NCBI GenBank assembly: GCA_048938295.1
Contig: JBHLMI010000007.1
Coordinates: 55,978 to 87,977, forward strand
Direction of reading: 5' to 3'
Source of the DNA: Promethearchaeota archaeon
Lineage (GTDB): Archaea; Asgardarchaeota; Hermodarchaeia; Hermodarchaeales; Hermodarchaeaceae
Length of the DNA: 32,000 nt
Shown here: positions 5,081 to 29,492 of the stretch, one piece after another
How the letters are laid out: the number at the start of each line of letters is the position of its first letter
Numbering within the stretch: position 1 is the stretch's first letter
The notes under the pieces: generated by a model
Databases searched by the model: none
The model's input: the letters and a program-made list of their open reading frames with translations, nothing else
Told to the model about the DNA's origin: nothing
Position numbers and translations under genes: made by a program

Positions 5081-5116
5081 TTCATTAAATTCAATGAATT
5101 TGTTATTTTTAATGAA
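5081..5116. repeat. 9-bp iteron array 1 (TTCATTAAA TTCAATGAA TTTGTTATT TTTAATGAA)
   Basis: Period-9 copies of palindromic TTCAWTGAA in the xpd-radB gap. Confidence 0.7.
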
Positions 5117-5128
5117 GTAGAAGAGGAT

Positions 5129-7126
5129 TCATGTAACTGAATAGAAGTTCTTTAGGTGAGTATAAAGTACTCCTTCAGCGTCATTTGAGCCCCTTAAGTG
5201 TTCGTTTATCCATTTGGGGAGCAAACGTTTGCAAGCTGGCGTAGCATAACGGTCATCTAAAAATACAATCGCACCCCTGTCCTCAAGTGTGCGAACTGAA
5301 CGCCCTGCTGCCTGAGACGCGGTTCGCAGAGCAGGCAGTTGGTACCCATATAACCGACCCTTCTGAGGAAATTGGCTTTCAAGGTACGCGATTCGAGTCG
5401 CCTCCTTTGGAGTAGGCTTTGCGTAAGGAACCCCAACAATCACTACCGTCTCCATCTCATTCCCCGGATAATCCTCCCCCTCACTGTTCCTCCCGCCAAG
5501 GACCCCAATAAGCATGGCACCGTCATGAGCTTTGCGTTTAAACTTCTGAATTAAGGAATCGTTTTCGCTCGAAGACAACTTCGGTTTCTCAATGAATAGT
5601 TCCCGATTAGATACCTCATCTAAACCAGCATCAAGAAGAGATTGTAGTACCGAGTATGATGGAACAAAAACACCAACGTTATGGGGTGTAGCCTGGCAAA
5701 CCTCTAGAACTCGGCGATTAATTTTTTTGTACATTTGAGGCGTTCTGTATTTCATGGCCGTTGTGACTCCAAGACTGATTATTGGGAAAATTTGGTTCTG
5801 AGTAAAAGGAAAAGGTAAATTGAGAACCACCGTTTTTTTCGGTAAACCAACAAGATCAATATGGGCACTTGTTGGCTCCAAGGTCCCCGATAAATGAACC
5901 GAAGAATAGCAAGATTTCAGAATCGAAGTAGTTGCTATACGCGGGTCTAATGCAACTACTTCAAGATATGTAGGCGTATGATTTGGTTTATTTTGGATAA
6001 TGAAGAAGGCTGCATCTTTTCTTTTAAGAAAGAAACACCAGTTTATGAAGAACTGAGCCAGGGAATGGATGTAGCTTATCGGTGGTTTTCCTTCGTTTAG
6101 TAATTGGTTAAGCACCTTACTACCCAATTGTAACAAAGTTTCAACAAAGTTATTGAAATCATTAATTTTAAGAACTTGACATAATCGTGAAGTTAACTCA
6201 ACTGGGTCAAATCGAACCTCCCGTTCTGAATAGCCATCTATCAATTGTTGAATGAAATGTTCCAAGGTGAGTACGAAATGTTTGATTGATGAAAGGCCAT
6301 AGCGATTCGCTTCTTTCACTGACTGCTTTATTGATGTCAACGAAAGGCGTGCAGATGCTAAATCGACGGCAATCCGAGGTAGATTGTGGGCTTCATCTAA
6401 AATGAGGATTGTGTGAGACAATGGATGACCAAAAGCCTCAAAGAACAGGGTATTTATATGCGGATCAAAGATCTGAAAATAAGTGGTAGCCACAACAGTT
6501 ACCAAAGGCAGCAGGCATTTTGAAAGCTCATAAGGGCACACCTTATCAGACTCACACTTTTTCCGAAACTCCAAACCTGTGAGAGGTGTTTGATAATAGT
6601 TGCTAAAATAATCCCGCTCTCTTTTCTTCCTTTTTACGAGATTTTGATAATACTCACAGCGTCCCGCACGTTTCAATTGACTGCAAATGAACATGGCAAG
6701 TTGAGCACTTTCAGCATATTTGCGAACTATTGGATTCAGGCATGTGGATGCGCGTCCTCGTAATACCACTCCATTGAAGCCAGTCGATTCGGAGATTAGT
6801 CGTAATTCTTGCATCACCCGATCTAATTGTTTGTGAGTTCTGGCAACATAGACTATCCCAAAACTCTTCCTCTTAAGGAGTGACAAGACCCCCGATAAGG
6901 CAGCGATAGTTTTCCCAAAACCATTAGCAGCCTCAACGCACATATGTTTCCCAGCCCCGACATCATCATGAATTGCTTGAATTAATGATAGTTGACCAGG
7001 CCTTGGAGAAGTATAGGGAAAATAGCGTTGGGTATGGTTTGAACACATTTTGCGTGTCCTCATCATTTGATAAAGCTTAGAGAATAAAAACTTCGTTTTG
7101 GTTTCATGCTTCAGAATAGAATTCAT
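5129..7126 (-). CDS. xpd: XPD/Rad3-type Fe-S 5'-3' DNA helicase
   Basis: Q-motif PRPGQ, EAANGFGKT, Fe-S cysteines, DEAHNL, SGTL, GVLGGRNSEGED, QAAGRSVR. Confidence 0.92.
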   Translation of the reverse strand: MNSILKHETKTKFLFSKLYQMMRTRKMCSNHTQRYFPYTSPRPGQLSLIQAIHDDVGAGKHMCVEAANGFGKTIAALSGVLSLLKRKSFGIVYVARTHKQLDRVMQELRLISESTGFNGVVLRGRASTCLNPIVRKYAESAQLAMFICSQLKRAGRCEYYQNLVKRKKRERDYFSNYYQTPLTGLEFRKKCESDKVCPYELSKCLLPLVTVVATTYFQIFDPHINTLFFEAFGHPLSHTILILDEAHNLPRIAVDLASARLSLTSIKQSVKEANRYGLSSIKHFVLTLEHFIQQLIDGYSEREVRFDPVELTSRLCQVLKINDFNNFVETLLQLGSKVLNQLLNEGKPPISYIHSLAQFFINWCFFLKRKDAAFFIIQNKPNHTPTYLEVVALDPRIATTSILKSCYSSVHLSGTLEPTSAHIDLVGLPKKTVVLNLPFPFTQNQIFPIISLGVTTAMKYRTPQMYKKINRRVLEVCQATPHNVGVFVPSYSVLQSLLDAGLDEVSNRELFIEKPKLSSSENDSLIQKFKRKAHDGAMLIGVLGGRNSEGEDYPGNEMETVVIVGVPYAKPTPKEATRIAYLESQFPQKGRLYGYQLPALRTASQAAGRSVRTLEDRGAIVFLDDRYATPACKRLLPKWINEHLRGSNDAEGVLYTHLKNFYSVT

Positions 7127-7148
7127 TGATTACAATGAGATTATTGAG
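7122..7148. repeat. 9-bp iteron array 2 (TTCATTGAT TACAATGAG ATTATTGAG)
   Basis: Period-9 copies overlapping the xpd start in the divergent promoter region. Confidence 0.65.
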
Positions 7149-7191
7149 TATATTGATATCCAAGAGCGTGGAAAGTGTTTAAAGTACCAAC

Positions 7192-7761
7192 GTGTTTTTA
7201 AGTATCGATTCGAGACGTATACAATATTGTATCCATGGGGGTAAGGATTTGTCTCAAAGAAACGAAGTCAAGGAAACGCGTTCTTGGGCGCGTAGAATGC
7301 TACAGGATCCAATAACAGTATTGTTGGCTAAAAAAAGCCACCTGTCCCAAGTGCAGCTAGAAACTCTAGTGCTTGATTATCTTCTCGACGGTTTCAGTGG
7401 AAAGCGCATTGACTATCAAACCAAAGCAGCTCTGAGAGATAAAAAAGATAAAATGCAAAAACAGGCAGGTGTTAGTAGAGGAGCTTTCAACCGTTCGCTC
7501 GCTCAGGCACGTCAGAATGTTACGAAATCTGTTTTTACCGTGGTACTGTTAGGCTATCTTGGGCTATTTGAATCACCTTCTCTGATGCGTTATCAAGACT
7601 TGGCAGAGGACATTCGAAGTTATGCGCGCGAATACGACATTGTCGCTACAAAAGACGAAAAGCCAACCCCCACCCACCTAGGCACCCTCAAACAGAGCCA
7701 AAATCGCATTCTAGAGCTCATTGAGGCCCTTGCCCAACCATTGGCACTTAAACCCGACTGA
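7192..7761 (+). CDS. Conserved archaeal hypothetical protein with a putative HTH (true start possibly TTG at 7249)
   Basis: DPITVLLAKKSHLSQVQLETL and GVSRGAFNRSLAQARQNV resemble an uncharacterised TACK/Asgard family with an HTH_10-like recognition helix (from memory, not searched). Confidence 0.75.
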   Translation: MFLSIDSRRIQYCIHGGKDLSQRNEVKETRSWARRMLQDPITVLLAKKSHLSQVQLETLVLDYLLDGFSGKRIDYQTKAALRDKKDKMQKQAGVSRGAFNRSLAQARQNVTKSVFTVVLLGYLGLFESPSLMRYQDLAEDIRSYAREYDIVATKDEKPTPTHLGTLKQSQNRILELIEALAQPLALKPD

Positions 7762-7763
7762 GT

Positions 7764-7787
7764 AATTTCAATGAACTCATTGAAATT
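7764..7787. repeat. 9-bp iteron array 3 (TTCAATGAA CTCATTGAA), a perfect 11-bp inverted repeat
   Basis: AATTTCAATGA-AC-TCATTGAAATT in a convergent intergenic gap. Confidence 0.8.
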
Positions 7788-7810
7788 CCATAATTACGGT
7801 ATTAAGGCAG

Positions 7811-8383
7811 TCAGGACACAAAAGTCAAAATTTCTTTTCCTTTTGTCGTGAGTGTGAGAGTCCCTTGGGATTCGCTGAGTAACTTTTTAGATGTAAGGTA
7901 GTCAATGGCTTGGTCGATAAACCCAGTATCAAACCCGACATCAAGTAGAGAGGAATCTTGGATGGTTCCTCCCATATTTTGAACCTGCAATAGTATGGAA
8001 TAATACCCGAGGGCGCCAATTAGGTTAGTAGCAAGCCCAGCCTCTTCTTCCAATTTTTTTGGCCAAAGATGGATTGGCAGCCACCCAATGAAGCTATAAA
8101 CCACTACTTCTTCAAAGGCATGGAGTAAGTTGAGAACGGCATCCTCAGTTCCAGGTTGAATGGCGATCACACTTTTCCCAAGCTTCACGTATGGTATCTG
8201 GTCTAGCACCCCGGGATAGTGGTACGTTCGAGTTACAATTTCTCCATCTTTCAGTTCCTGTTTGATTTGCTGAGTATACCCATACAACTCTCGAAAGAAC
8301 CGTGTTTTTCGAGCTTGGCTCGATCCCTTAGGCTGCTTGAAATCAAAAGAGATCACATATACTCGTCGTACATCATGCGACAT
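7811..8383 (-). CDS. Cas2/VapD-like ferredoxin-fold domain fused to a C-terminal winged helix
   Basis: VYVISFDF resembles the Cas2/VapD beta1 ending in Asp; KLGKSVI resembles the Cas2 RVQxSVF strand; C-terminal IDQAIDYLTSKKLL...TLTLTTKGKEIL is wHTH-like. Confidence 0.6.
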   Translation of the reverse strand: MSHDVRRVYVISFDFKQPKGSSQARKTRFFRELYGYTQQIKQELKDGEIVTRTYHYPGVLDQIPYVKLGKSVIAIQPGTEDAVLNLLHAFEEVVVYSFIGWLPIHLWPKKLEEEAGLATNLIGALGYYSILLQVQNMGGTIQDSSLLDVGFDTGFIDQAIDYLTSKKLLSESQGTLTLTTKGKEILTFVS

Positions 8384-8480
8384 CCGTTAGACCCACCCGA
8401 AATGCCAAATGAAGATTCTATATCCGAGCGGACCTTATAATTTATATCGACTGCTATCGACTGATAGTGATTTGAAGAAT

Positions 8481-8516
8481 AATATTAATTTCATTGATTT
8501 TAATGAAATTAATAAT
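8481..8516. repeat. 9-bp iteron array 4 (AATATTAAT TTCATTGAT TTTAATGAA ATTAATAAT), with a perfect 13-bp inverted repeat
   Basis: TATTAATTTCATT-GATTTT-AATGAAATTAATA (8483-8514), just downstream of the RHH gene. Confidence 0.8.
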
Positions 8517-8529
8517 TTCACGAGTAAGA

Positions 8530-8898
8530 TTATCCTTCTCGTTGTAATTCATTGTATACTTCAGGAAAATCAGACTTCAGCTTTTCCTCAAGAGCTTCAG
8601 CAATGAACCTAGATTTCCCACCAAAGCCTGCATATTGTCCCTGTCCTGATTTCGTAGCCGCTAACGATACGAAATCTAAAGCCGCTTTAATCCAAGCGGG
8701 TACACTGGCACTGATAGTTCGACGCCCCTCATACTCGCTTTCGATACGCAATCTCTTCAACCCCGAATCTCCAACCCGTGCCGACAGTTCTTCGAGTTCA
8801 ATTTCCCGAGTTTCTGCTGACTGGGTTTTTTTCGGTGGTTTGGGTTTTGATTCTTTTTCCTTTTTCATCCGTTCTCTAATGAGATCAGTAGCTGACAT
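8530..8898 (-). CDS. Ribbon-helix-helix DNA-binding protein with a Lys/Pro-rich flexible N-tail (ParG/SegB-like architecture)
   Basis: RRTISASVP (beta strand), AWIKAALDFVS (helix 1), GKSRFIAEALEEKL (helix 2); N-terminal MKKEKESKPKPPKK tail. Confidence 0.7.
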   Translation of the reverse strand: MSATDLIRERMKKEKESKPKPPKKTQSAETREIELEELSARVGDSGLKRLRIESEYEGRRTISASVPAWIKAALDFVSLAATKSGQGQYAGFGGKSRFIAEALEEKLKSDFPEVYNELQREG

Positions 8899-8909
8899 TT
8901 ACACTCACC

Positions 8910-10229
8910 TCAAACAAACGTGGATCCTTTAGTCCAAAGCTCGGTGGCTTGTATCTTGCCGGCTTCGGGACTGTATATGAGCCCCTGCTTTTCGAATAAG
9001 TCGAAATCTTCTAGCACACTTTCCCATGAACGTTCCTGATTCTGGAGCCAAGACTCAATATCATCTAGCGAACGAGAAACGGAAAGAAAGCCTAAGAGCT
9101 CAGTTTGAAAGTTAGTAAACTCTGCTCGCGCACGGGTTACTTCCTTTTGGACAAATTGTTGAACATATTCTGAATTAATTTGGTAAACTGATATGACTTG
9201 ATCCAATGAGTACCCATCATTGATGAGAACCTCAGCACCTCGGATTGCATCCTGAAGACACCGGAGAAGTAGTTCAAGCATAATCCCAGGATTTCCTCCG
9301 GAATAGTTGAATATTGCTTCCAGCGCCTCTCCTGTGAAGGGAACAAGTAACCCCTGGATCATGGGTGAATCGAAATTAATACGTTCATCGAGTTCCTTAC
9401 TAATTTTATCCAATGAACCTTTGAGATAGGCCAGTCTCCAGAGCAGTACTTTCAAAGCAGTGCTCTTTTTCATTCGACGCATATCGTAAATCTCAACGAA
9501 CCTTCGCCGAATAGCTGACTTGCTTCCATGGCCTAAGGTTTCCCCTACTGAGGAAAGGAGTTCGAGCGTCTTTACTGCACTTTCCCCAACACGTGTAATG
9601 ATGGCTAAAGCTAGCACGAGAAATCGGCGACCATCTCTGGTCTTATCATTGACCATCCGAAGAAGGGTATCAACTATACGTACACGATTGTCTGGTCGTT
9701 GACGTTCTAGCTGGCGAAATTCGTCGATTAACAAGACATACGAGGTTCCATTCTCTTCTGCATCTGTTCGCAGGGCTAATAAGAGACGCGAGAGTCGTTT
9801 GGCAATGGAGCCGCTTCTTACTACACGAACCCCCACTTTATCAATTAAAAAGTCCCGAACGGTTTGTACTCCTATATCAGCATGGAGAAGATCGTCAATC
9901 AGCGCGTCGGCTGAACTGACTCCTTCAAGACGAACGGCACGTATATTCGGTAAGCGATTCAATGACTCTTGAATCATCTCCAAGAAGGTAGTCTTTCCAG
10001 CACCGAGGGGACCAGACACAACGATACTCGCGGTCTGATTTCGAAGATAGTTGACCGCCCTTTTGATTGCCAAAGCCTCCTCCTCAGGGACGACATATAA
10101 ATCCGGTGAATCTATCCCAAAGAGCTCAATCCGTTCGGTTTTGAAACCCCATTTTGCTAGCATTTGCTGATCAAATTTGTGCGTTTGCTCGACTAACCGA
10201 TCAAGTTCACTCAGACTAAACACACCCAA
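8910..10229 (-). CDS. ExeA/TniB/MuB-like AAA+ ATPase with C-terminal winged helix
   Basis: Walker A GPLGAGKTT, Walker B LLIDE, RRRF (putative arginine finger), PFTGEALEAIFNYSGGNPG ExeA-type lid, wHTH-like last ~70 aa; TTG start; 11-bp gap to the RHH gene. Confidence 0.8.
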   Translation of the reverse strand: MGVFSLSELDRLVEQTHKFDQQMLAKWGFKTERIELFGIDSPDLYVVPEEEALAIKRAVNYLRNQTASIVVSGPLGAGKTTFLEMIQESLNRLPNIRAVRLEGVSSADALIDDLLHADIGVQTVRDFLIDKVGVRVVRSGSIAKRLSRLLLALRTDAEENGTSYVLLIDEFRQLERQRPDNRVRIVDTLLRMVNDKTRDGRRFLVLALAIITRVGESAVKTLELLSSVGETLGHGSKSAIRRRFVEIYDMRRMKKSTALKVLLWRLAYLKGSLDKISKELDERINFDSPMIQGLLVPFTGEALEAIFNYSGGNPGIMLELLLRCLQDAIRGAEVLINDGYSLDQVISVYQINSEYVQQFVQKEVTRARAEFTNFQTELLGFLSVSRSLDDIESWLQNQERSWESVLEDFDLFEKQGLIYSPEAGKIQATELWTKGSTFV

Positions 10230-10300
10230 GAATGTTGATAGAGAAGGGAGTCCAGTGATAAAAAATTATTGATTGTATTTAAGATAAAAAACTAATTGGT

Positions 10301-10327
10301 CGTAATGAATTCAATGAAATTATTGAT
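10301..10327. repeat. 9-bp iteron array 5 (CGTAATGAA TTCAATGAA ATTATTGAT)
   Basis: Period-9 copies about 70 bp upstream of the AAA+ gene start, next to a TATA-like element on the minus strand (CTTAAATA, ~10275-10282). Confidence 0.75.
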
Positions 10328-10340
10328 TTGCTAGATAATT

Positions 10341-10937
10341 TCATGGTTTTGTATAGGCAATGACGTCGATTTTAGTAATTATTCCAATTGGCCTGTCTTC
10401 ATCTAATACTAAGACAGCTTCAACCCCGGCAGCGATTTTAGAAAAGGCTGTTTCTACTTTATCTCTAATGTCAATTGTTGGAAAAGGAGGTTCCATGATT
10501 TCTTGAACAGAAAGACCAAATACTTTCTGTGATTCCATGACCATTAGCTGTTTGATAATTGTTCCCTCACTGATGGCTCCAATTGCTTTGTTTCGTTTCA
10601 GCACGGGTAACTGTGAGATACCATGACGTCGCATGAGAATCACAGCTCGTCGAACCCTATCTTCAGGGCCAACCCAGATCAAGGGATTCAGCTTTGATTG
10701 GCCTTTCCACCTCAACAAATCACTAAGAGAGGAATAGGTGTGTTTATGCTCTTCGATTACGGCGAGTATACGTTTGAGCGTACCGACACTGGGATTTACC
10801 TGACCCTTTTCAATGCGTGCCACCAAAGACTGACTTATCCCGACGTGTTTCGCTAGCTCAGATTGGGTTAATCCGACTTGTTTTCGTAATTCTTGGAGTT
10901 CTTTGGGTGAAGGAACGCGAAATTCAGTCATTAGCAA
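10341..10937 (-). CDS. XRE-family HTH + CBS-pair transcriptional regulator
   Basis: ELRKQVGLTQSELAKHVGISQSLVARIEKGQVNPS followed by CBS motifs (GISQLPV, GIITKID). Confidence 0.9.
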   Translation of the reverse strand: MLMTEFRVPSPKELQELRKQVGLTQSELAKHVGISQSLVARIEKGQVNPSVGTLKRILAVIEEHKHTYSSLSDLLRWKGQSKLNPLIWVGPEDRVRRAVILMRRHGISQLPVLKRNKAIGAISEGTIIKQLMVMESQKVFGLSVQEIMEPPFPTIDIRDKVETAFSKIAAGVEAVLVLDEDRPIGIITKIDVIAYTKP

Positions 10938-11008
10938 GCACGCACCGATATCTTATACTATTGATAATAACTCCAAAAGAATTAATACTCTGCCTGAATC
11001 GGTGAAGG

Positions 11009-13348
11009 ATGGAGATGACGACAATGCCCAACGCTCAACAAGCTGAAATTCGAGTCGTTGGTGTCGTTCAAGGAATTGGTTTCCGTCCATTTATTTATGC
11101 GCAAGCTACCCAGCGTGGGCTTGTTGGGTTTGTTTTGAATACTGGAAATTCGGCAGTACTAATTGTTGTGGAAGGAGAAAAAAAGAAAATCATTGAATTT
11201 ATTGAATCCATTGAAAGAGATAAGCCCTACCTGGCTGTTATTGACAGCATTCAAACCATCTGGCACACTACTGCAGGCAAATTTAAGGACTTCCAGATTC
11301 GCATCTCCAAAAATGAGCAGAAAGCGGGTGGTTCAGTTATCCCCGCCGATATCGCTGTGTGTACTGATTGCATAGAAGATATGAATAACCCCCAATCACG
11401 CCATTATCAATACCCGATGACCTGTTGTGCCATCTGCGGCCCTCGTTACACCACCATCACGGATACCCCCTATGATCGTGAACGTACTACAATGAACGAG
11501 TTCCCTTTATGCGAAGCCTGTGACAAAGAATACAACAACCCCATCGACCGACGGTATAATGCCCAAACTATTTGTTGCCCCATTTGTGGTCCACATTTTA
11601 CCATATTAGAAGCCGATGGAACAGCTCTCAAAGTTAGGGATCCCTTTATCGAATCTGTGAAATTACTGAATGAAGGTGCAATCGTCGCGGTTAAAGGATT
11701 GGGTGGAATTCATCTGGCAGTCAGGTCTACACTAGATGACCAAGTCAAACGTCTCCGCGAACTTCGGAACAAACCGAACAAACCCTTCGCCATTATGTCC
11801 AAAGACCTTGAGGCAGTACAGAAGTATGCGGCAATCGACTCAACCGCGGAACGATTGCTCTTGTCATGGAGACGTCCCATTGTGGTAATACCGCAACGAA
11901 CCCCGTTTCCACTCTCAAAATTTCTTTCTCCAGGATTGGACACCGTTGGCGTCATGCTTCCATATTCAGGAATCTATCTTCGACTTTTCGAAGGGTTACA
12001 AGATCTTGCCTTGGTAATGACCAGCGCTAATCCTACAGGCTTGCCCACGATGATCCATGCTTCTACATTTCAAGAACGTTTTATGGATATGGCAGATTAT
12101 TTCTTAACACATAATCGAACAATCTTCCAGCGATGCGATGACTCCGTGCTAATTCCTATATTCGATCAAGAGTTGATAATTCGGCGATCACGAGGGTACA
12201 CTCCCGAACCCATCGACACCGCGGATGGAGGTCCTACAATTCTTTCACTCGGTGCTTTAGAGAAAAACACCGGGTCTATTTACCATAAGAGACGGGTTTT
12301 TCTTACTCAGCACATTGGAGATATTGATACAGTCGAATCCCTCCAATTTCTCCAGGAAAGCCTCTCTCATCTAAAGAACTTGCTACGGGTTAATACCTTC
12401 GATGCGGTTGCCTGTGATCTGCACCCAGATTTCTTAACCACTCAATACGGAGCAGAGTTATCGAAAGCACAGCAAGTTCCACTTGTCCAGGTGCAGCACC
12501 ATCATGCTCACCTAGCTGCTATTCTCGCCGACCACAAATTACCTCTTGATGAAGAGATCGTGGCTATTTGCTGTGACGGTGCAGGATACGGTCCAGACAA
12601 AACCGTGTGGGGTGGGGAAATTCTTACAGGAACCGCGTACAACTACACAAGATCGGCGTATCTCGAGCCACAACCCATGCCCGGTGGAGATCTGGCCGCA
12701 AAGTTCCCTTTCCGAATGCTACTTGGTATTCTCTCGAAGAAATATTCAGAAACAGAATTACGTAGCCTTTTCGAGATAAGGGCAAAGGATTCATTACCAC
12801 AGGGAACCGCGGAATTTGAAATAATCCTGACTCAAATATCTCAAAAGATTAACACGCCGATAACTTCGAGTACGGGCCGCGTTTTAGATTCACTGGCTGC
12901 GCTATTGGGTGTATCCACCCAGCGAACCTATGAAGGGGAACCCGCCATTCGACTTGAAGCCTTCGCGAATATGGGAACCTACCGACCAGACATTCAGTTA
13001 GATATTCCAGTGAACCAGGAAGGAAAAGTACAGGTGTTAAAGACAAGTAATCTTGTGGATCAGGTCTTACAACTCCAGGGTGAATTTAGTGGTTCTGATC
13101 TCGCTCTAGCTGCACACCAATCTTTAGGAAAAACTCTTGCACATGCGGCTATTGGCGCGTCAAAATCTAATGGAACAACAAAAATCGGATTTACCGGCGG
13201 AGTCGCCTACAACAAAATTCTCACACGTACAATTCGAAGCATTATCGAAGCAGCAGGGTATGAGTTCCTGATGCACCGAAAGGTCCCTGCAGGCGACGCA
13301 GGTATCGCGGTGGGGCAATCCCTGGTCGCACGTGCCAATCTTCGATAG
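11009..13348 (+). CDS. hypF: Hydrogenase maturation carbamoyltransferase HypF
   Basis: GVVQGIGFRPF acylphosphatase domain, two CxxC zinc fingers (CAICGPRY, CPICGP), KGLGG, QHIGD, DLHP, QHHHAH, DGAGYG, TSSTGR, PAGDAGI. Confidence 0.95.
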   Translation: MEMTTMPNAQQAEIRVVGVVQGIGFRPFIYAQATQRGLVGFVLNTGNSAVLIVVEGEKKKIIEFIESIERDKPYLAVIDSIQTIWHTTAGKFKDFQIRISKNEQKAGGSVIPADIAVCTDCIEDMNNPQSRHYQYPMTCCAICGPRYTTITDTPYDRERTTMNEFPLCEACDKEYNNPIDRRYNAQTICCPICGPHFTILEADGTALKVRDPFIESVKLLNEGAIVAVKGLGGIHLAVRSTLDDQVKRLRELRNKPNKPFAIMSKDLEAVQKYAAIDSTAERLLLSWRRPIVVIPQRTPFPLSKFLSPGLDTVGVMLPYSGIYLRLFEGLQDLALVMTSANPTGLPTMIHASTFQERFMDMADYFLTHNRTIFQRCDDSVLIPIFDQELIIRRSRGYTPEPIDTADGGPTILSLGALEKNTGSIYHKRRVFLTQHIGDIDTVESLQFLQESLSHLKNLLRVNTFDAVACDLHPDFLTTQYGAELSKAQQVPLVQVQHHHAHLAAILADHKLPLDEEIVAICCDGAGYGPDKTVWGGEILTGTAYNYTRSAYLEPQPMPGGDLAAKFPFRMLLGILSKKYSETELRSLFEIRAKDSLPQGTAEFEIILTQISQKINTPITSSTGRVLDSLAALLGVSTQRTYEGEPAIRLEAFANMGTYRPDIQLDIPVNQEGKVQVLKTSNLVDQVLQLQGEFSGSDLALAAHQSLGKTLAHAAIGASKSNGTTKIGFTGGVAYNKILTRTIRSIIEAAGYEFLMHRKVPAGDAGIAVGQSLVARANLR

Positions 13349-13382
13349 TAATCTGAACAACGAAGGCGGCTTTGTATCATTC

Positions 13383-13418
13383 AAGAATGATTTCATTTAT
13401 TTCATTGAATTCAATAGG
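13383..13418. repeat. 9-bp iteron array 6 (AAGAATGAT TTCATTTAT TTCATTGAA TTCAATAGG), abutting an ORB
   Basis: Period-9 copies whose last base is shared with the ORB at 13418. Confidence 0.75.
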
Positions 13419-13431
13419 TTCCAGTGGAAAT
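13418..13431 (+). promoter_or_regulatory. ORB core (GTTCCAGTGGAAAT) without a G-string
   Basis: Match to the archaeal origin recognition box core GTTCCAGTGGAAA. Confidence 0.75.
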
Positions 13432-13486
13432 CATCCACAACTAATATAAATACCCGATATTTATCTAGACATGGAGTTGTAGTATT

Positions 13487-13783
13487 ATGGCCGCTACCCG
13501 AACGTCACAACAGACCACTCAAAACGCCCAGAAGACAAAAACACGGCAACGACCAGCAACCATAGTTCCCACAGAAACAGCAGAGGTTAAGAGCCACATA
13601 ACTGCACTTCTACGATCAAAAGGTGCCCTCACCAGAGGAGAAATAACTACCAAAACGGGAATACCCCGAACCACAGTTTATGACACCCTTATGAACTTGC
13701 TAATCTGTGGTGTCGTTGAAAAATATGTTGAGCGAAATGGTCGTCGTGGCCGTCCTTCTGTCTATTATCAACTAGTCGCTTAA
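13487..13783 (+). CDS. Small TrmB-like winged-helix protein between ORBs
   Basis: LTRGEITTKTGIPRTTVYDTLMNL...GVV...RRGRPSVYY; T/Q/K-rich N-tail. Confidence 0.8.
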   Translation: MAATRTSQQTTQNAQKTKTRQRPATIVPTETAEVKSHITALLRSKGALTRGEITTKTGIPRTTVYDTLMNLLICGVVEKYVERNGRRGRPSVYYQLVA

Positions 13784-13796
13784 TTTTTTAGATAAT

Positions 13797-13817
13797 CCCC
13801 CTTATTTCCACTGGAAC
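13797..13817 (-). promoter_or_regulatory. Full ORB with G-string (GTTCCAGTGGAAATAAGGGGG)
   Basis: Plus strand reads CCCCCTTATTTCCACTGGAAC. Confidence 0.9.
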
Positions 13818-14000
13818 CTCTTTTTTGTCGGTTTTATTGTTAATAGTTAATCTTTTCATGAAATGCGCAAAAGTGTCTTGTGAAATATTTACAGAGGATA
13901 TGGAGAGACTGTAAACTATTTATATAAGATAGAAGGAAAACAAACGGGGAGTATTCTTCGAATAATTAAAAACAAATTACAAACTCTAATAATTCTTCGA

Positions 14001-14023
14001 GTTCCAGTGGAAACAAAGGGGAG
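14001..14023 (+). promoter_or_regulatory. Full ORB with G-string (GTTCCAGTGGAAACAAAGGGGAG)
   Basis: Near-perfect match to the archaeal ORB consensus. Confidence 0.92.
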
Positions 14024-14143
14024 TATCGAGAAACACCAAATAAGAGCTTATTTCTTTGAACTTTGGTGATCTATTTGTTAAGAGTTTATAACTATAGTGC
14101 ATAACTCATTCATATGCAAAGGAAAATCAAATAGTTTTTGGTC

Positions 14144-14614
14144 TCAGGTTTTATCTGCAAGTACTGCTGCGATCTCATCAGTGAGTTCTTCAATATTCAC
14201 ACGATATTCGCGTTGAGCGGCTGATCCTCTTCGGCTTAAGCTACCTTCTTTGTGCATACGAGAAAGGTAGGTTGAAGCGGTTGCTAGGGGGATTGGTGGG
14301 TGGAAGGCGTGTTCGTAGAGCTCCTGGACGTCCTTTGATGTGAACCAACCGTGGCGGCAGTTACGCAAGACGATGTATCGGACTTTTTGCCTGACGGTCC
14401 AGGATTCATAGTCTGGTATTTTCAATGCATCGGGTGGTGTGTCCGTTGTGGCCTCTTGTTTGTCTGGGGACTGCAAGGCTGTTGCTATGGTTTCAGTGAT
14501 GGACAATGGTAGGCCGTCATTGAAAGTAATAGTGATGTCGCAAGGTTTTCCATCGATTGTGAGACCTTCAATGGTGATCTTCTGTTTCTGTTTCTTCATT
14601 GATCCATACCCCAT
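14144..14614 (-). CDS. Winged-helix protein within the origin region (likely start ATG 14599)
   Basis: GWFTSKDVQELYE...PIPLATASTYLSRMHKEGSLSRRG...YRV wHTH pattern; short beta-rich N-terminal region plus linker. Confidence 0.8.
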   Translation of the reverse strand: MGYGSMKKQKQKITIEGLTIDGKPCDITITFNDGLPLSITETIATALQSPDKQEATTDTPPDALKIPDYESWTVRQKVRYIVLRNCRHGWFTSKDVQELYEHAFHPPIPLATASTYLSRMHKEGSLSRRGSAAQREYRVNIEELTDEIAAVLADKT

Positions 14615-14842
14615 TAGGGTGTATGTGGCTCTCCATGTCCCTTCTAGGTTTCATGTTCACAGCATTAAAAGTGTGACGGTGTGAACTGGCTCGAAACTAA
14701 AATGTAGCATATTGTCAGCAGTTCTGTATTAGTGATACATTAGGGTCTGGTGTGTTCTTATGTATTTAATCGGATAAATTGTGAAATAAGGATTATCCGC
14801 CCTCTATTTTTGATTTAGAGGTTTTTCTCCAAGTTTTTAATA

Positions 14843-15036
14843 TGTTCACCTGTTGTTAACATGTTAACAATTAAATTCTGGTAAATATGCCCTTAGATTA
14901 GTTTTCCAATGGAAATGAAGGGGGGAGGCGATGTTAACAAGAATAATACTATGGATAAGTATTTTTTCGCAAAAAGAAGGCTAAATTATTGTTATTCAAT
15001 AAAATATGTTAACGTTTTTGGCGCCAATTGTGAACA
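14843..15036. repeat. Cluster of palindromic TGTTAACA octamers
   Basis: Perfect at 14854, 14862 (tandem) and 14932; near-perfect at 15007 (TGTTAACG), 15029 (TGTGAACA) and 14843 (TGTTCACC). Confidence 0.65.
14904..14925 (+). promoter_or_regulatory. ORB with G-string (TTCCAATGGAAATGAAGGGGGG)
   Basis: One core mismatch to the ORB consensus, followed by a G-string, 240 bp upstream of cdc6. Confidence 0.85.
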
Positions 15037-15165: not shown

Positions 15166-16401
15166 ATGGACGACCCCAGACCACTTGACCGCATCTTCGA
15201 CCGATTGAGCTCTGGTCCGACCCTCATCGAGGATCGAAAAGTGTTACGGCATGAATACGTTCCTGACGTACTTCCCCACCGGGAGGAGCAAATTACGCAG
15301 ATTGGAAGTATACTAGCCACGGGATTAAAGGGAGGTCGGCCTTCAAACGTTTTTGTGTTTGGGAAACCGGGAACTGGAAAAACTGCTGTGACCCAATATG
15401 TGCTTCGGGAATTGGCGACGAAATTTGGCGAACTGCAATTGCCTTTCAAAGCAGTATATCTGAATTGTCAGCATGTGGATACCGATTATCGGGTGTTGGC
15501 TCGGATTTGTGCTGAGTTGGGGCAGAAAGTGCCATTTACTGGATTGCCAACAGATGAAGTTCATTCACGTCTCGTCGAATTATTAGAAAGTCAGGATCGG
15601 TTGACCATAATCGTATTGGATGAGATTGACCGATTGGTAATGAAAAGTGGAGGTGATACTCTCTACAAACTGACGCGTATAAACTATGAGCTATCTAAAG
15701 CGCGGGTTAGTCTGATTGGGATTTCAAATGACCTGCAATTCCCGAGTTATCTTGATTCTCGGGTGCTGAGTAGTCTAAGTGAAGAAAAGGTGATTTTTCA
15801 TCCGTATACTGCTCCACAATTGCAAGATATTCTGCGTCGGCGAAGCTCAACCGGTCTAAAAGAAGGAATATTAGAAGAACCTGGGGTCATTAATCTTTGT
15901 GCGGCTTTGGCTGCAAGAGAGGAGGGAGATGCCCGCCGGGCACTTGAACTCCTGCGTGTGGCGGTGGAAATTGCGGAAAGAGAAGGCAGTGCTGAAGTAA
16001 AAGTCGAACACGTTGAGAAAGCGCGTTCAAGTATTGAGCGTGATACGACATTGGAAGTGTTACGTACGCTGCCTGTTCAACAGAAATTAGTGCTTTATGC
16101 AGTCTACCTGCTTGAAAAGCATAAACATCCGCATCCTGTGACAGGGGAGGTTCAAGACGTGTATGGTGATCTTTGTAATCAACTTGGTATGGATCCGTTG
16201 ACTCAGAGGAGGGTAGGCGACCTTATCAATGACCTTGATGGGATCGGGCTTGTCAATGCGAAGGTTATTAGCAAAGGGAGGTATGGACGGACAAAGAATA
16301 TCCGCCTCAGTGTACCAAAGAATATAGTCTCCGATGTGTTGGAACGTGACAGTCGTATCAAAACCCTCGCAAATTATGTACCTCCTACCTTGAGAAAATA
16401 G
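15166..16401 (+). CDS. cdc6: Orc1/Cdc6 replication initiator (origin-associated)
   Basis: YVPDVLPHREEQI, GKPGTGKT, IVLDEID, GDARRAL, C-terminal wH (LTQRRVGDLINDLD...SKGRYGRT); next to the ORB cluster. Confidence 0.95.
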   Translation: MDDPRPLDRIFDRLSSGPTLIEDRKVLRHEYVPDVLPHREEQITQIGSILATGLKGGRPSNVFVFGKPGTGKTAVTQYVLRELATKFGELQLPFKAVYLNCQHVDTDYRVLARICAELGQKVPFTGLPTDEVHSRLVELLESQDRLTIIVLDEIDRLVMKSGGDTLYKLTRINYELSKARVSLIGISNDLQFPSYLDSRVLSSLSEEKVIFHPYTAPQLQDILRRRSSTGLKEGILEEPGVINLCAALAAREEGDARRALELLRVAVEIAEREGSAEVKVEHVEKARSSIERDTTLEVLRTLPVQQKLVLYAVYLLEKHKHPHPVTGEVQDVYGDLCNQLGMDPLTQRRVGDLINDLDGIGLVNAKVISKGRYGRTKNIRLSVPKNIVSDVLERDSRIKTLANYVPPTLRK

Positions 16402-18591: not shown

Positions 18592-18688
18592 TGGCGCGGA
18601 GTAAGGGACTTGAACCCTTGCGACCAGAAGGTCACTGGATAACCCGATTCAACTCGAGTCCAGCGCGTTACCGCTCCGCCAACTCCGC
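18592..18688 (-). tRNA. tRNA-Ser(CGA) with a 12-nt canonical 37/38 intron (18641-18652), CCA encoded
   Basis: GCGGAGT/ACTCCGC acceptor, G73, long variable arm GACC-TTCT-GGTC, anticodon loop CT-CGA-G[TTGAATCGGGTT]A. Confidence 0.92.
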
Positions 18689-25685: not shown

Positions 25686-26906
25686 ATGGAGATTATCCGA
25701 CATGAATTGCAACGCCCATCTGTATTCATCGATGAGGCGAAGCTGTCCATTGATTATGTTCCTCCCAACCTCCCCCACCGTGAGGAACATCTCCGTAAAT
25801 TAACGCAGTTGTTTCGTGGCGTCGTCGAGGCACCCGGTCAAGTGTCACAAAAGGTAATCATTATCGGTAATACGGGATCAGGGAAGACCTCAGTCACTAA
25901 ACTGTTTGGAAAACTGCTCTGCGAAGTGGCGAAGAGCCACGGCTTTAATCTGGTATACGTGCATGTGAATGCGCGTCGTGAACGAACCGAATACATGATT
26001 CTGAACAAGATCCTCTCTGCCTTTCAGAGAGGAATACCGCTTCGTGGGTTATCAGCACAAGAATTGCTTTCAATCATTTTGGAGTATATTGAATCGAATA
26101 ATCTCTACCTGCTAGTCACGTTAGATGAGCTTGGGGTGTTCCTCAAGCGTCGTGGAGAAGAGATACTCTATCTCTTGTCACGCACGGTGGATGATCAACT
26201 CAATGCCCAACAGCGCATCTCCCTGATTGGCATAAGCCGTGATCCATTGTTCGGCTTCATCCTTGACCCGAGCACCTGGAGTACTCTACAGAAGAATGTC
26301 CTTCATTTTAATCGCTATGATTCACGTCAGCTTCGAGATATCTTGGAGTTTCGGGTAAAAGCGGCAGTGTTGGACGGCGCAGTACCGGCGAGTACAATCG
26401 ATCTAATCGCCGATATCGCAGGCGCCTCTGGAGACGCACGTTACGCCTTGGAGCTGCTCTACAACGCAGGCAAAGTAGCCGACGAGAAAGGAGTGCTTCG
26501 GATACTGCCTGAATATGTACGGAGCGCGAAGGCGTTCATTACGCCGGAAATACGACGCGAAGTCCTTGTCGATTTATCGCTGCACCGTCTTTTCCTTCTG
26601 CTTGCGGTTTGCAGATTGTTAAAGCCTTCAGAAGATGCCTACATTACCACTGGCGACCTTGAAGCTCGTTACGAGCTTATCTGTGAAGAGTATACACGGA
26701 GCCCCCGCGCCCATACCCAGGTATGGACATATATCCAAGACCTTGTGGGGCTTGGGATTCTCACTTCAAAGATCTCCGGTACTGGACAACGCGGAAAAAC
26801 TACGCTAGTTAGTCTCCCTGACATTCCTGCGGCTGTCCTAGAACATGAGCTGGAATTACTCCTTGAGAAACGGAGAGTTGGTGCTAAAGGTGGTCGAAGA
26901 AACTAA
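25686..26906 (+). CDS. cdc6: Second Orc1/Cdc6 paralog
   Basis: YVPPNLPHREE, GNTGSGKT, VTLDE, SGDARYAL, HTQVWTYIQDL...GQRGKTT winged helix. Confidence 0.92.
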   Translation: MEIIRHELQRPSVFIDEAKLSIDYVPPNLPHREEHLRKLTQLFRGVVEAPGQVSQKVIIIGNTGSGKTSVTKLFGKLLCEVAKSHGFNLVYVHVNARRERTEYMILNKILSAFQRGIPLRGLSAQELLSIILEYIESNNLYLLVTLDELGVFLKRRGEEILYLLSRTVDDQLNAQQRISLIGISRDPLFGFILDPSTWSTLQKNVLHFNRYDSRQLRDILEFRVKAAVLDGAVPASTIDLIADIAGASGDARYALELLYNAGKVADEKGVLRILPEYVRSAKAFITPEIRREVLVDLSLHRLFLLLAVCRLLKPSEDAYITTGDLEARYELICEEYTRSPRAHTQVWTYIQDLVGLGILTSKISGTGQRGKTTLVSLPDIPAAVLEHELELLLEKRRVGAKGGRRN

Positions 26907-27218: not shown

Positions 27219-28448
27219 TTAGTCTTTGAGGAGAAATTGGATTAATTCGTCTGTTAGCTCCAAATTTCTCGTAATCTCTTCTTTCAGACCATCGGTTTCT
27301 ATTAGAGCTTTAAGTACAATTTTGTATTCTTCGTAGGCTTTCTTAGAGGAAAGATGTACAATTGGCGAAAGTGATTGGCCAATTAAGGCGCGCTTTTGAC
27401 GGAGTCCTCGAGAAAATCCCATCTGGCGAATCCATTCGGGGAAGCTATATTCTGGGTGTGTTTCAGCAGGCTTTCCACCTAATATGGATGCGGATAGGCT
27501 CATGAGCTCTTTAGAATAGGGAAGTAATCTCCAGTTTTGTGTTTGTTTCATTCGTTGATTGTGGATGCTTGCTTTTGACAGTATTGCCAATCCTTTCTCT
27601 TGTTGTGCTAGATTAGGAAATACAAGAGGCAGATTGTTGCTTACCCACCTGAGTAATTCATCAGGGTATGCATCGGTTTGGTTTGCCGCATAAATGGCAT
27701 CGTTCCAGGTTTTGGCATAGAAAATTCGGTCAAGAGCCTCATTGATGTCAATCGTTTGGTCTCTTGCGTTAAGAAGCTCGGTTACTCTTTCAGTAGTGAT
27801 TGTTGACCCCCTTTCGGCAAGACGCTGCAAATCGTTAATGGCCGCTCGAAGATCACCGCGAGACCCTAAGGCCAGTTGCTCCAATGCCGCTCTATCATAT
27901 TTGAGTGCCTCCTCATGGCAGATACTTTGAAGCTTATCGGCGATTTCCGAATTTGATATTAGCTGAAACTCAATATATGTGCACAACTTTCGCAAGGGGC
28001 TGATTTTAGCATCTGTAACATCGTTTGTGATAAGTATGATTGGCACTTGCGTTTCTATGACATAATCTTTGATTGCCGAAGTTGCCCCTCTATCGGATTT
28101 CCCACTAAGTCCTTCCAGTTCATCGATTAGGATTACACGTCCTCGTTCGCTTGTGAGGGTTCTAGTCATTGTTGAGATTTTCAGCAATTCGTTCATCAAT
28201 TTCTTGCTGCGTTTCACACTCGAATTTATCTCAAAAACCTCATAACCCACTTCGTTGGCAATTGTATATACTGCTAGGGTTTTTCCAACTCCAGTAGGAC
28301 CAAAGAGCAAGAGTGCACGTTGGTTACGTAAGACGCTTTTAGGCCATTTTTGCAACCATTCTAAAATCCTAGAAGTAACTGTCTTGTTTCCAACTAGGTC
28401 CTTCGTGTGGCGGGGCTTGTATTTTTCAACCCAAGGTTGGTCTATCAT
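27219..28448 (-). CDS. rfcL: Replication factor C large subunit
   Basis: PWVEKYKP, GPTGVGKT, EINSS, LIDE, GDLRAAINDLQ, QNWRLLPY. Confidence 0.92.
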   Translation of the reverse strand: MIDQPWVEKYKPRHTKDLVGNKTVTSRILEWLQKWPKSVLRNQRALLLFGPTGVGKTLAVYTIANEVGYEVFEINSSVKRSKKLMNELLKISTMTRTLTSERGRVILIDELEGLSGKSDRGATSAIKDYVIETQVPIILITNDVTDAKISPLRKLCTYIEFQLISNSEIADKLQSICHEEALKYDRAALEQLALGSRGDLRAAINDLQRLAERGSTITTERVTELLNARDQTIDINEALDRIFYAKTWNDAIYAANQTDAYPDELLRWVSNNLPLVFPNLAQQEKGLAILSKASIHNQRMKQTQNWRLLPYSKELMSLSASILGGKPAETHPEYSFPEWIRQMGFSRGLRQKRALIGQSLSPIVHLSSKKAYEEYKIVLKALIETDGLKEEITRNLELTDELIQFLLKD

Positions 28449-29419
28449 TTTTGAAAATCACTTGACTGCGCTAATAGAGAAAATCTCGCTAATATGTGAC
28501 TTAGCTGAATTTCAGGATCTGCGCCTTCGGTTAAGCGGAATTCCGCCTCTCCTACCATATCTACCATTTGTACCTTCACCGATTCATCAATACCTAGTTT
28601 CAATACTTCTCGGTGTATCTGTCGAATGATGTCGGTTCCGGATAGTCCCTGCCAAATCAATAGATTGCGTAGTTTCTCTTGAGCGTCTAAGAATTTGCCG
28701 TTGAGTGCTGATTGAAGTATCTGGTGAATATCCTCTGGTCGCGCTTTACCTGTCGTCGCAAACACGGCATCTGCATCAACCTGTTTCTTAATGACTGAAG
28801 CGGCTTGAAGAACGTTAATTGCACGCCGCATGTCCCCTCCTGATACATATAATATCGCATCGAGGCCTTCTTCAGATGCTTTGACCTGCTCTTTCTGTGC
28901 GATGAAACTCAATCGTTTACGTATTTCCTTTTCGTCTAATCGTGGAAAGCGAAAAATGGCACACCGGGATTGGATGGGATCAATTATTCGACTCGAATAG
29001 TTACAAATTAGACAAAACCTGCAGCTAGAAACATATCGTTCCATAGTCCGACGCAAAGCATGTTGCGCATCCCGCGTCAAGCTATCCGCCTCATCCAGGG
29101 AAATAATCTTGAATGGGACATCACCCAAGGGGCTGGTTCGTGCGAAGCTTTTTACTCGGCTTCGAATAACATCGATCCCACGCTGGTCCGACGCGTTAAG
29201 CTCTAAAAAATTTCCCTGAAATTGATCGCCATAGAGTTCATTGGCAAAGGCGATGATTGCTGTGGTTTTTCCTGTTCCTGCAGGGCCGGCAAACAGAAGG
29301 TGTGGTAAATCACTTTCGACTAGGAATTTTTGCAGTCGGTCTGTTATTGGTCGTTGACCTATAACCTCTTTAAGCTTCTTGGGGCGGTATTTCTCTGTCC
29401 ACATCCAATGCTCTGACAT
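28445..29419 (-). CDS. rfcS: Replication factor C small subunit (start taken at MSEHW)
   Basis: WTEKYRP, GPAGTGKT, ELNASDQRGID, LDEAD, ALRRTME, IQSRC, GDMRRAIN. Confidence 0.95.
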   Translation of the reverse strand: MSEHWMWTEKYRPKKLKEVIGQRPITDRLQKFLVESDLPHLLFAGPAGTGKTTAIIAFANELYGDQFQGNFLELNASDQRGIDVIRSRVKSFARTSPLGDVPFKIISLDEADSLTRDAQHALRRTMERYVSSCRFCLICNYSSRIIDPIQSRCAIFRFPRLDEKEIRKRLSFIAQKEQVKASEEGLDAILYVSGGDMRRAINVLQAASVIKKQVDADAVFATTGKARPEDIHQILQSALNGKFLDAQEKLRNLLIWQGLSGTDIIRQIHREVLKLGIDESVKVQMVDMVGEAEFRLTEGADPEIQLSHILARFSLLAQSSDFQK

Positions 29420-29492
29420 GTACTCTTTAACCTCATGGTAATTGTAAGGTGCTCTTCGATTAAGCTTTCGACAGTACAACAGGCATTTCTTT

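Follow-up and report, generated by a model that had tools for sequence, protein, structure and literature searches.

An origin-linked AAA+ ATPase, a small RHH-like protein and 9-bp repeat arrays as a candidate partition-like or organising module in an Asgard archaeon

We analysed a 32,000-nt stretch of DNA from an Asgard archaeon (the window, G000:C47:55978-87977, from a metagenome-assembled genome of 2.52 Mb that is 91.6% complete). The window contains a two-gene operon that encodes an AAA+ ATPase and a small protein with a probable ribbon-helix-helix (RHH) fold, set among tandem arrays of a 9-bp word on one flank of a replication origin. Our preferred reading, held tentatively and at somewhat less than an even chance, is an origin-linked nucleoprotein module acting as a partition-like or organising cassette. 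No publication describing the module was found in the literature. The features on which the argument turns are as follows (window coordinates; ORB, origin recognition box).

8910 to 10229, minus strand: AAA+ ATPase, 439 aa, with an N-terminal WGFK...ELFG segment, Walker A and B, RRRF, SGGNPG and an acidic C-terminal winged helix.
8899 to 8909, minus strand: intercistronic gap of 11 nt, with GGTGA (Shine-Dalgarno-like) ahead of the ATG of the RHH gene.
8530 to 8898, minus strand: small protein, 122 aa, with an N-terminal helix, a K/P-rich linker and a C-terminal RHH-like beta-alpha-alpha domain.
13419 to 14915: oriC core, ORB boxes at 13419, 13805 (reversed), 14002 and 14904; G-strings follow three of the four.
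5081 to 5116: array 1, TTCAWTGAA-like 9-bp units, upstream of a RadA-like gene.
7122 to 7157: array 2, four phased units, in the divergent gap between XPD and a 189-aa gene.
7767 to 7784: array 3, between two convergent stop codons; position kept in loci L001 and L007.
8490 to 8516: array 4, directly downstream of the RHH gene; conserved block in 12 species.
10301 to 10327: array 5, about 75-100 nt upstream of the ATPase start; conserved block in 12 species.
11189 to 11215: array inside the 5' part of hypF, three phased units; position kept in L001 and L007.
13392 to 13418: array 6, abutting the outermost ORB.

The ORB core (TTCCANTGGAAA) has three matches genome-wide, all at 13419-14915 and directly upstream of orc1/cdc6, and a reversed fourth copy lies at 13805. 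This is the genome's only ORB cluster and, judged by its sequence, its sole recognisable replication origin. The ATPase start is 3.2 kb from the first ORB, close to the approximately 3.5 kb given in a first-pass annotation of this DNA.

The same annotation had reported 9-bp arrays at 5081-13418 near the operon, and genome-wide counts bear this out. Exact TTCAWTGAA occurs six times in the window against 0.99 expected. Seven of the 28 phased two-unit pairs of the genome, and four of its five phased runs of at least three units, fall within 5081-13418. Six arrays are intergenic (starting at 5081, 7122, 7767, 8490, 10301 and 13392), and a seventh lies inside hypF (11189). They stand on both sides of the operon and on one flank of oriC only. 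Between 5.1 and 13.4 kb there is an array at every gene boundary, the one for the boundary between hypF and the helix-turn-helix (HTH)-CBS gene being 180 bp inside hypF. In the spacers of 12 host-genus species, the arrays upstream of the ATPase gene and downstream of the RHH gene are conserved blocks amid variable sequence. Between array 5 and the ATPase start, a further block, ATCT(T/C)(A/C)AATAC(A/T)ATCAATAAT (10255-10290), is found in the same place in L010-L019 and across the 12 species; its sequence is probably that of a TATA box and a single array-like unit.

The same TTCAWTGAA word, with the same 9-bp period, surrounds the pair in L001, L007 and L003. Arrays lie between convergent stop codons in the window (7767), L001 (12438), L007 (11139) and L003 (7329), and a promoter is not expected at such a place as array 3. 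An array within hypF was found in all three host-genus loci scanned there. Arrays in convergent-gene gaps and in the hypF coding region argue that the units are not purely promoter-operators. The hypF-internal units (11189-11215) encode IIEFIESIE, and selection on the DNA site or on the peptide are both possible. The only run of at least three units outside the origin region is at G000:C32:25119-25154 (L046 3620-3655). It occupies a divergent gap between an unannotated 272-aa gene heading a Ras-family GTPase gene and a GNAT (Rv0428c-like) acetyltransferase gene.

Next, we considered how far the operon and its origin linkage are conserved. Each of the 15 host-genus genomes gave a single match to the ATPase, and no match came from the other 84 sampled genera. 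Its 75 homologues at 76-95% identity belong to one GTDB genus, and the five longer host-genus loci examined have the same gene order. Close relatives carry varied submitter labels (Hermod-, Hod-, Thor-, Odin- or Promethearchaeota). An apparent absence of the ATPase from the sister genus g2 was discarded as evidence, as the orthologous orc1 was found in only one of four assemblies, on a contig ending 1.8 kb upstream of it.

Deep conservation of the ATPase rests on two further branches. In the "Ranarchaeia" branch (55% identity, L003), orc1/cdc6 is 1.7 kb away from the pair, which directly adjoins ORB boxes; the rest of the neighbourhood differs. In a metagenomic branch (29% identity; L047, L048 and L004), a 108-aa protein is encoded 8 nt after the ATPase, and the pair lies 3.8 kb from orc1/cdc6 beside the genes for both PolD subunits. 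All three branches keep the downstream small gene and a distance of 0-4 kb from ORB boxes adjoining orc1/cdc6, whereas the other neighbours differ. The pair is thus linked to orc1/cdc6 and ORB boxes down to 29% identity, in line with the closeness to oriC noted in the first-pass annotation. Conservation of the ATPase is similar to that of Orc1, at 81.5 versus 86.9% in L001 and 55 versus 52% in L003.

The two-gene unit with its 11-bp gap stands as first described. The GGTGA in the gap indicates operonic translation, and a Shine-Dalgarno-like site precedes the second gene both in the host genus and in L047. Gaps of 8-33 nt and the ATPase-first order are kept in the three branches (100, 55 and 29% ATPase identity). 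Database copies of the ATPase start two codons in, at GTG 10223.

Within the ATPase, GPLGAGKTT (Walker A), LLIDEF (Walker B), RRRF and SGGNPG are invariant across 24 homologues, in line with the motifs first read from the window (GPLGAGKTT, LLIDE and RRRF). The 29%-identity branch still keeps Walker A, Walker B, RRF and the NPG of SG-x-NPG. At the sensor-II position, the Gly of NPG (G315) aligns with the Arg of Orc1 GDAR and is invariant in all branches, so the missing sensor-II Arg that had been noticed as GNPG holds throughout. In an AlphaFold model built from the 24 homologues (pLDDT 82, pTM 0.73), an N-terminal helix and the WGFK...IELFG segment, which is invariant though poorly ordered, accompany an AAA+ core that has three helices between beta2 and beta3; a lid and a winged helix at the C-terminus are also seen. 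Foldseek against the PDB gave archaeal ORC2, Orc1 and Cdc6 and eukaryotic Orc1, Orc4 and Cdc6 as top matches. The best Swiss-Prot match in the AlphaFold Database (AFDB) is MJ0774 (TM 0.56/0.59), followed by Orc1-type proteins and ExeA. Among AFDB clusters, many ExeA-type AAA_22 proteins superpose on residues 23-358 with a root mean square deviation of 4-5 Å. The predicted fold places the protein in the initiator clade of AAA+ ATPases, with a lid and a winged helix, nearest to Cdc6/Orc1, ExeA, PF01637 and TnsC/MuB, which agrees with the ExeA/MuB-like type assigned at first.

By sequence, the ATPase is an orphan: a HMMER search against 1.84 billion representatives returned three proteins. Pfam gave weak generic AAA+ matches (ATPase_2 36 bits, AAA 32.5, AAA_22 31.1). 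The AAA_22 (PF13401) score is above the gathering score of 27, but it is 22.4 bits in the L047 branch. The match to ATPase_2 (PF01637, the archaeal ATPases of PDB 2qen and 2fna) is partial, covering positions 7-155 of a 225-position profile, and the 29% branch no longer shows it. NCBIfam, PADLOC and PHROGs gave P-loop-level matches only, and TIGR03015 scored 18.3 bits against its NCBIfam cut-off of 324.5. Unlike ExeA/GspA, which belong to AAA_22, the module has no secretion partner or peptidoglycan-binding domain, and no secretion or peptidoglycan-binding neighbours were found at the ATPase loci examined.

Archaeal Orc1/Cdc6 and eukaryotic ORC/Cdc6 (PDB 1w5s, 2qby and 7jgr), together with Methanocaldococcus jannaschii MJ0774, are among the closest known systems. 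With Orc1/Cdc6, the AAA+ core, lid and C-terminal winged-helix architecture are shared. However, no sequence homology to Orc1/Cdc6, ORC or MJ0774 was detectable beyond the P-loop region, the hhalign alignment to Orc1 covering the Walker A to Walker B stretch only (P=0.0088). The Cdc6_lid (PF22703) and Cdc6_C (PF09079) signatures, which both orc1/cdc6 genes of the window have, were not found in the ATPase. GNPG replaces the sensor-II GDAR, and the WGFK/ELFG motif is an extra conserved N-terminal element. The winged helix is acidic, its 12 acidic residues outnumbering 5 basic ones (net -7); the sequence of its third helix is WESVLEDFDLFEKQG. With such a charge it is unlikely to be a DNA reader, and a protein-contact module is more likely from its sequence.

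The small protein has an N-terminal helix (SATDLIRERM), a basic K/P-rich linker, a conserved middle segment and a C-terminal pattern of a strand (TISASVP), a helix (AWIKAALD) and GFGGKS capping a second helix (RFIAEALEEKL). Pfam and NCBIfam searches, run with it singly and with all 25 alignment members, reported no RHH family. Aligned by hhalign with four RHH_1 proteins of its own genome, it falls in the expected register (P=0.027, weak). In the 29% branch, the orthologue has a more canonical strand and a SELIR helix, and its sole Pfam match is RHH_1 (E=0.05, weak). Among its language-model neighbours are clusters of Antitox_RHH, RHH_4, RHH_1 and CB_ParB_C (0.90-0.92). The monomer model (pLDDT 60) was too poor for a fold search, and a PDB sequence-profile search with the alignment gave chance-level matches only. 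Of the RHH protein with a basic N-terminal tail that the first-pass annotation described, the basic linker and the beta-alpha-alpha pattern are there to be seen, and the RHH fold itself is probable from the sequence pattern. In L047, a three-unit CAWTGTRA array (about 11712) occupies the convergent gap between the RHH and HTH-like genes; its word differs from that of the other loci, as does the beta-strand of the RHH domain, which makes one instance of covariation.

An N-terminal motif, S-x-T-D-L-I-R/K, occurs in every ATPase-linked small protein: SATDLIRERM in the host genus, SVTDMIKERL in L003 (from an upstream GTG start) and SIADLIRKQY or SIADLIKKQY in the 29% branch. It is absent or vestigial in a lineage that lacks the ATPase. 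Such co-occurrence fits the pattern expected if the tail of the small protein contacts the ATPase. A complex prediction of the two proteins scored 0.01, which is not evidence either way.

Two further proteins recur at these loci and are listed below with their homologues.

7192 to 7761, plus strand: HTH-like protein of about 160-190 aa (the 189-aa gene), with an invariant RGAF.R...QA..N segment.
L003 8954 to 9463, L005 7222 to 7722 and L047 11753 to 12235: homologues of the HTH-like protein.
14144 to 14614, minus strand: 156-aa member of a family of about 130-156 aa; the others are L003 12021 to 12479, L005 6738 to 7205 and L047 4002 to 4400.

Homologues of the HTH-like protein (31-72% identity) lie next to the RHH gene or the pair in all four lineages, and an array is usually found at the 3' end of the gene. 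In tblastn comparisons with L047, it is better conserved than the ATPase (37.8 versus 28.6%). From its sequence and position it is likely a third member of the module, and the window copy probably starts at M36. The second protein lies among or beside ORB boxes in all four lineages at 37-63% identity and has no Pfam match.

We rank an origin-organising or partition-like role first because of the anatomy of the cassette and because the ATPase belongs to an AAA+ clade with DNA-polymerising, peptide-switched members. MuB and TnsC, for example, form polymers on DNA, and peptides of their partners switch them. The generic features of a partition cassette are present, namely an NTPase and a small putative DNA-binding adaptor in one operon with tandem repeats beside it. 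Partition cassettes of types Ib and II (ParF-ParG, delta-omega, ParM-ParR) and SegAB share with the module the operon of an NTPase and a small RHH-type adaptor, flanking tandem short repeats, a flexible N-terminal tail on the adaptor, closeness to a replication origin and the NTPase-first gene order. In contrast to these systems, the NTPase of the module is an AAA+ protein with a classical Walker A, rather than the deviant KGGxxK[ST] and SIMIBI fold of ParA, or an actin or tubulin. The repeats, furthermore, are split into six or seven small arrays over 8 kb, and the module is known from sequence alone. Tandem abutting short units are also a feature of MetJ metboxes (8-bp palindromes) and omega heptads (7 bp); the unit here is the 9-bp TTCAWTGAA, a putative binding site. 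Each metbox or heptad is bound by one RHH dimer, with neighbouring dimers cooperating, and a 9-bp palindromic unit in tandem is about the footprint of one such dimer.

A mechanism along these lines would begin with RHH-like dimers binding the 9-bp palindromic units side by side, and so coating the arrays of two to four units that are spread along some 8 kb to one side of oriC. The N-terminal helix of the small protein, on its flexible basic linker, would dock on the partner ATPase and regulate it. The ExeA/Orc-like ATPase, with no sensor-II arginine of its own, could then assemble in an ATP-dependent manner on or between DNA segments, and this assembly might gather, position or separate the newly replicated origin region.

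Several observations weigh against this reading. The ATPase was detected in one of 85 sampled genera of the phylum, and it is therefore not a general Asgard system. In L005, L037, L038 and G001, which form a fourth lineage, the RHH gene is kept at a distance of 1.4-3.8 kb from the ORB boxes and orc1/cdc6, and weak arrays accompany it at the origin; the ATPase was not found there, even by a profile search of a 93%-complete genome. The strict scan missed arrays in this lineage; a laxer phased scan gave two weaker ones in L005, one of them beside an ORB. Statistical support for the RHH fold is weak, though each line of evidence agrees in direction, and the HTH-like protein at 7192-7761 could, from its sequence, be an equally available candidate reader of the arrays. 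We know of no partition motor that is AAA+. The genome encodes six ParA/MinD-type ATPases that could serve segregation, and ParB_N was not detected in the genome, at its 91.6% completeness. Finally, at full length the best fold matches are replication initiators (Cdc6/Orc1 and MJ0774), so that replication control is about as good a reading as partition. A review (PMC7617429) states that ParA/ParB homologues may serve segregation in Asgard archaea. In the origin region of L005, two copies of a 47-nt palindrome (GTGTTAGGGGG, an AT-rich loop and CCCCCTAACA; 7788-7834 and 9656-9702) bracket the TrmB/HTH-CBS genes of this ATPase-less lineage.

The proposal of the first-pass annotation, a partition-like cassette with an AAA+ motor, thus stands in its parts (operon, fold clade, private arrays and oriC link), and the fold evidence fits replication control about equally. 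The pair and its oriC link are kept in all three ATPase branches, with arrays of the TTCAWTGAA word in two of them and of a different word in the 29% branch; the lineage that keeps the RHH gene alone has weak arrays at its origin. We regard a partition-like role as plausible. The more specific claim, a chromosomal origin-segregation or organisation machine whose initiator-clade AAA+ motor is switched by the tail of an array-bound RHH adaptor, and hence a fourth class of partition NTPase, present in Asgard archaea, seems doubtful to us.

The ATPase could instead be an accessory factor or controller of replication initiation, which we consider rather unlikely. Here a very divergent Orc/Cdc6-like ATPase, recruited by the RHH protein to the flanks of oriC, would help, license or restrain initiation that depends on Orc1 and MCM; it might, for instance, sequester or remodel the DNA beside the origin. 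The match to MJ0774, the best in Swiss-Prot AFDB, speaks for this, as MJ0774 was once proposed as the M. jannaschii initiator (PMC3914693). Three branches keep the pair close to ORB boxes, orc1/cdc6 and PolD genes; in L003 it adjoins the ORB boxes directly, and array 6 touches ORB1. However, the ATPase has neither the lid nor the winged-helix domain signatures of Cdc6, unlike the two true orc1/cdc6 proteins of the window. Its profile-profile match to Orc1 reaches only P=0.009 between Walker A and Walker B, it lacks the sensor-II Arg, and its winged helix has a net charge of -7. The arrays, moreover, are spread over 8 kb and not concentrated at the unwinding site.

Slightly less likely again, in our judgement, is local transcription control, in which the RHH protein or the 189-aa HTH protein would repress or activate a small origin-proximal regulon (RadA-like, XPD, the operon itself, hypF and TrmB-like) with the ATPase as a nucleotide-sensing co-regulator. 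Autoregulation is typical of RHH proteins. The majority of the arrays are in intergenic DNA 5' of genes, in 12 species the conserved unit-like block (ATCAATAAT) separates a TATA-like box from the ATPase start, and the extra array on C32 occupies a divergent promoter gap. There is precedent in the RHH factors aCcr1-3, which are reported to control the Sulfolobus cell cycle (PMC9976892; bioRxiv 10.1101/2025.10.16.681758), and in Orc1-2, an Orc1/Cdc6 paralogue acting as a regulator in Saccharolobus (PMC12490963). Against this, arrays between convergent stop codons are kept in five loci and another lies inside hypF; the flanked genes differ completely between branches, whereas the oriC link is kept; and an energy-consuming AAA+ partner would be unusual for a simple operator-repressor pair.

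Mobile elements offer a further origin for such a pair. RHH and NTPase pairs and iterons are common on plasmids, and archaeal origins are thought to have captured extrachromosomal elements. A captured replicon remnant, or a defence or toxin-antitoxin pair near the origin by chance, would suit these habits and the patchy distribution, but it is very improbable given a single match in 15 of 15 genus genomes with constant gene order in five longer loci, conservation about equal to that of Orc1, arrays interleaved with housekeeping genes, and no integrase, transposase, Rep, defence or phage family match beyond the P-loop. Defence and phage readings were dropped since the PADLOC and PHROGs matches were at the P-loop level only. 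As the first-pass annotation had noted for a TniB-like gene, no transposase was found among the window ORFs scanned. Unlike MuB, TnsC and TniB, the ATPase family showed no transposase or transposon ends in its five fully listed loci and no adjoining transposase in L001, L003, L007 or L047, and the location of the module is chromosomal, syntenic and origin-linked.

The surroundings form a replication island: besides two bona fide orc1/cdc6 genes, they hold genes for the small subunit of PolD, for RFC, for an XPD helicase and for a RadA paralogue.

15166 to 16401, plus strand: orc1/cdc6 (bona fide), with Cdc6_lid and Cdc6_C Pfam signatures.
25686 to 26906, plus strand: second bona fide orc1/cdc6 paralogue, with Cdc6_lid and Cdc6_C.
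27219 to 29479, minus strand: RFC large-subunit-like gene (27219 to 28448) and an adjoining ORF, beside the second orc1/cdc6.

By synteny with L007, the ORF adjoining the RFC large-subunit-like gene probably encodes the small subunit of RFC. Next to the second orc1/cdc6, no ORB core was detected. Downstream of the RHH gene, a 190-aa protein (7811-8383, minus strand) has a C-terminal winged helix (HTH_45 E=8e-4; PADLOC WH_III-A E=2e-4). No Cas2 family match was obtained for it, and its homologues are confined to the host genus, with none in L003, L005 or L047. ARAGORN predicted a tRNA-Thr(AGT) of 97 nt at 18592-18688 (minus strand), which exceeds the standard tRNA length and may carry an intron.

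Taken together, these findings show several Asgard lineages with a compact set of elements at their ORB/orc1 origins: an ATPase, its putative adaptor, an HTH-like protein and a 9-bp site of defined sequence. Outside the module, the ATPase family is without sequence relatives. If the module serves segregation, it would represent a new motor class beside ParA, actin and tubulin. If it serves initiation, it would be a new Orc-like accessory factor in the lineage that gave rise to eukaryotic ORC. Either way, the question can be put to a direct test in vitro with the putative binding site and the protein motifs that this analysis defines.

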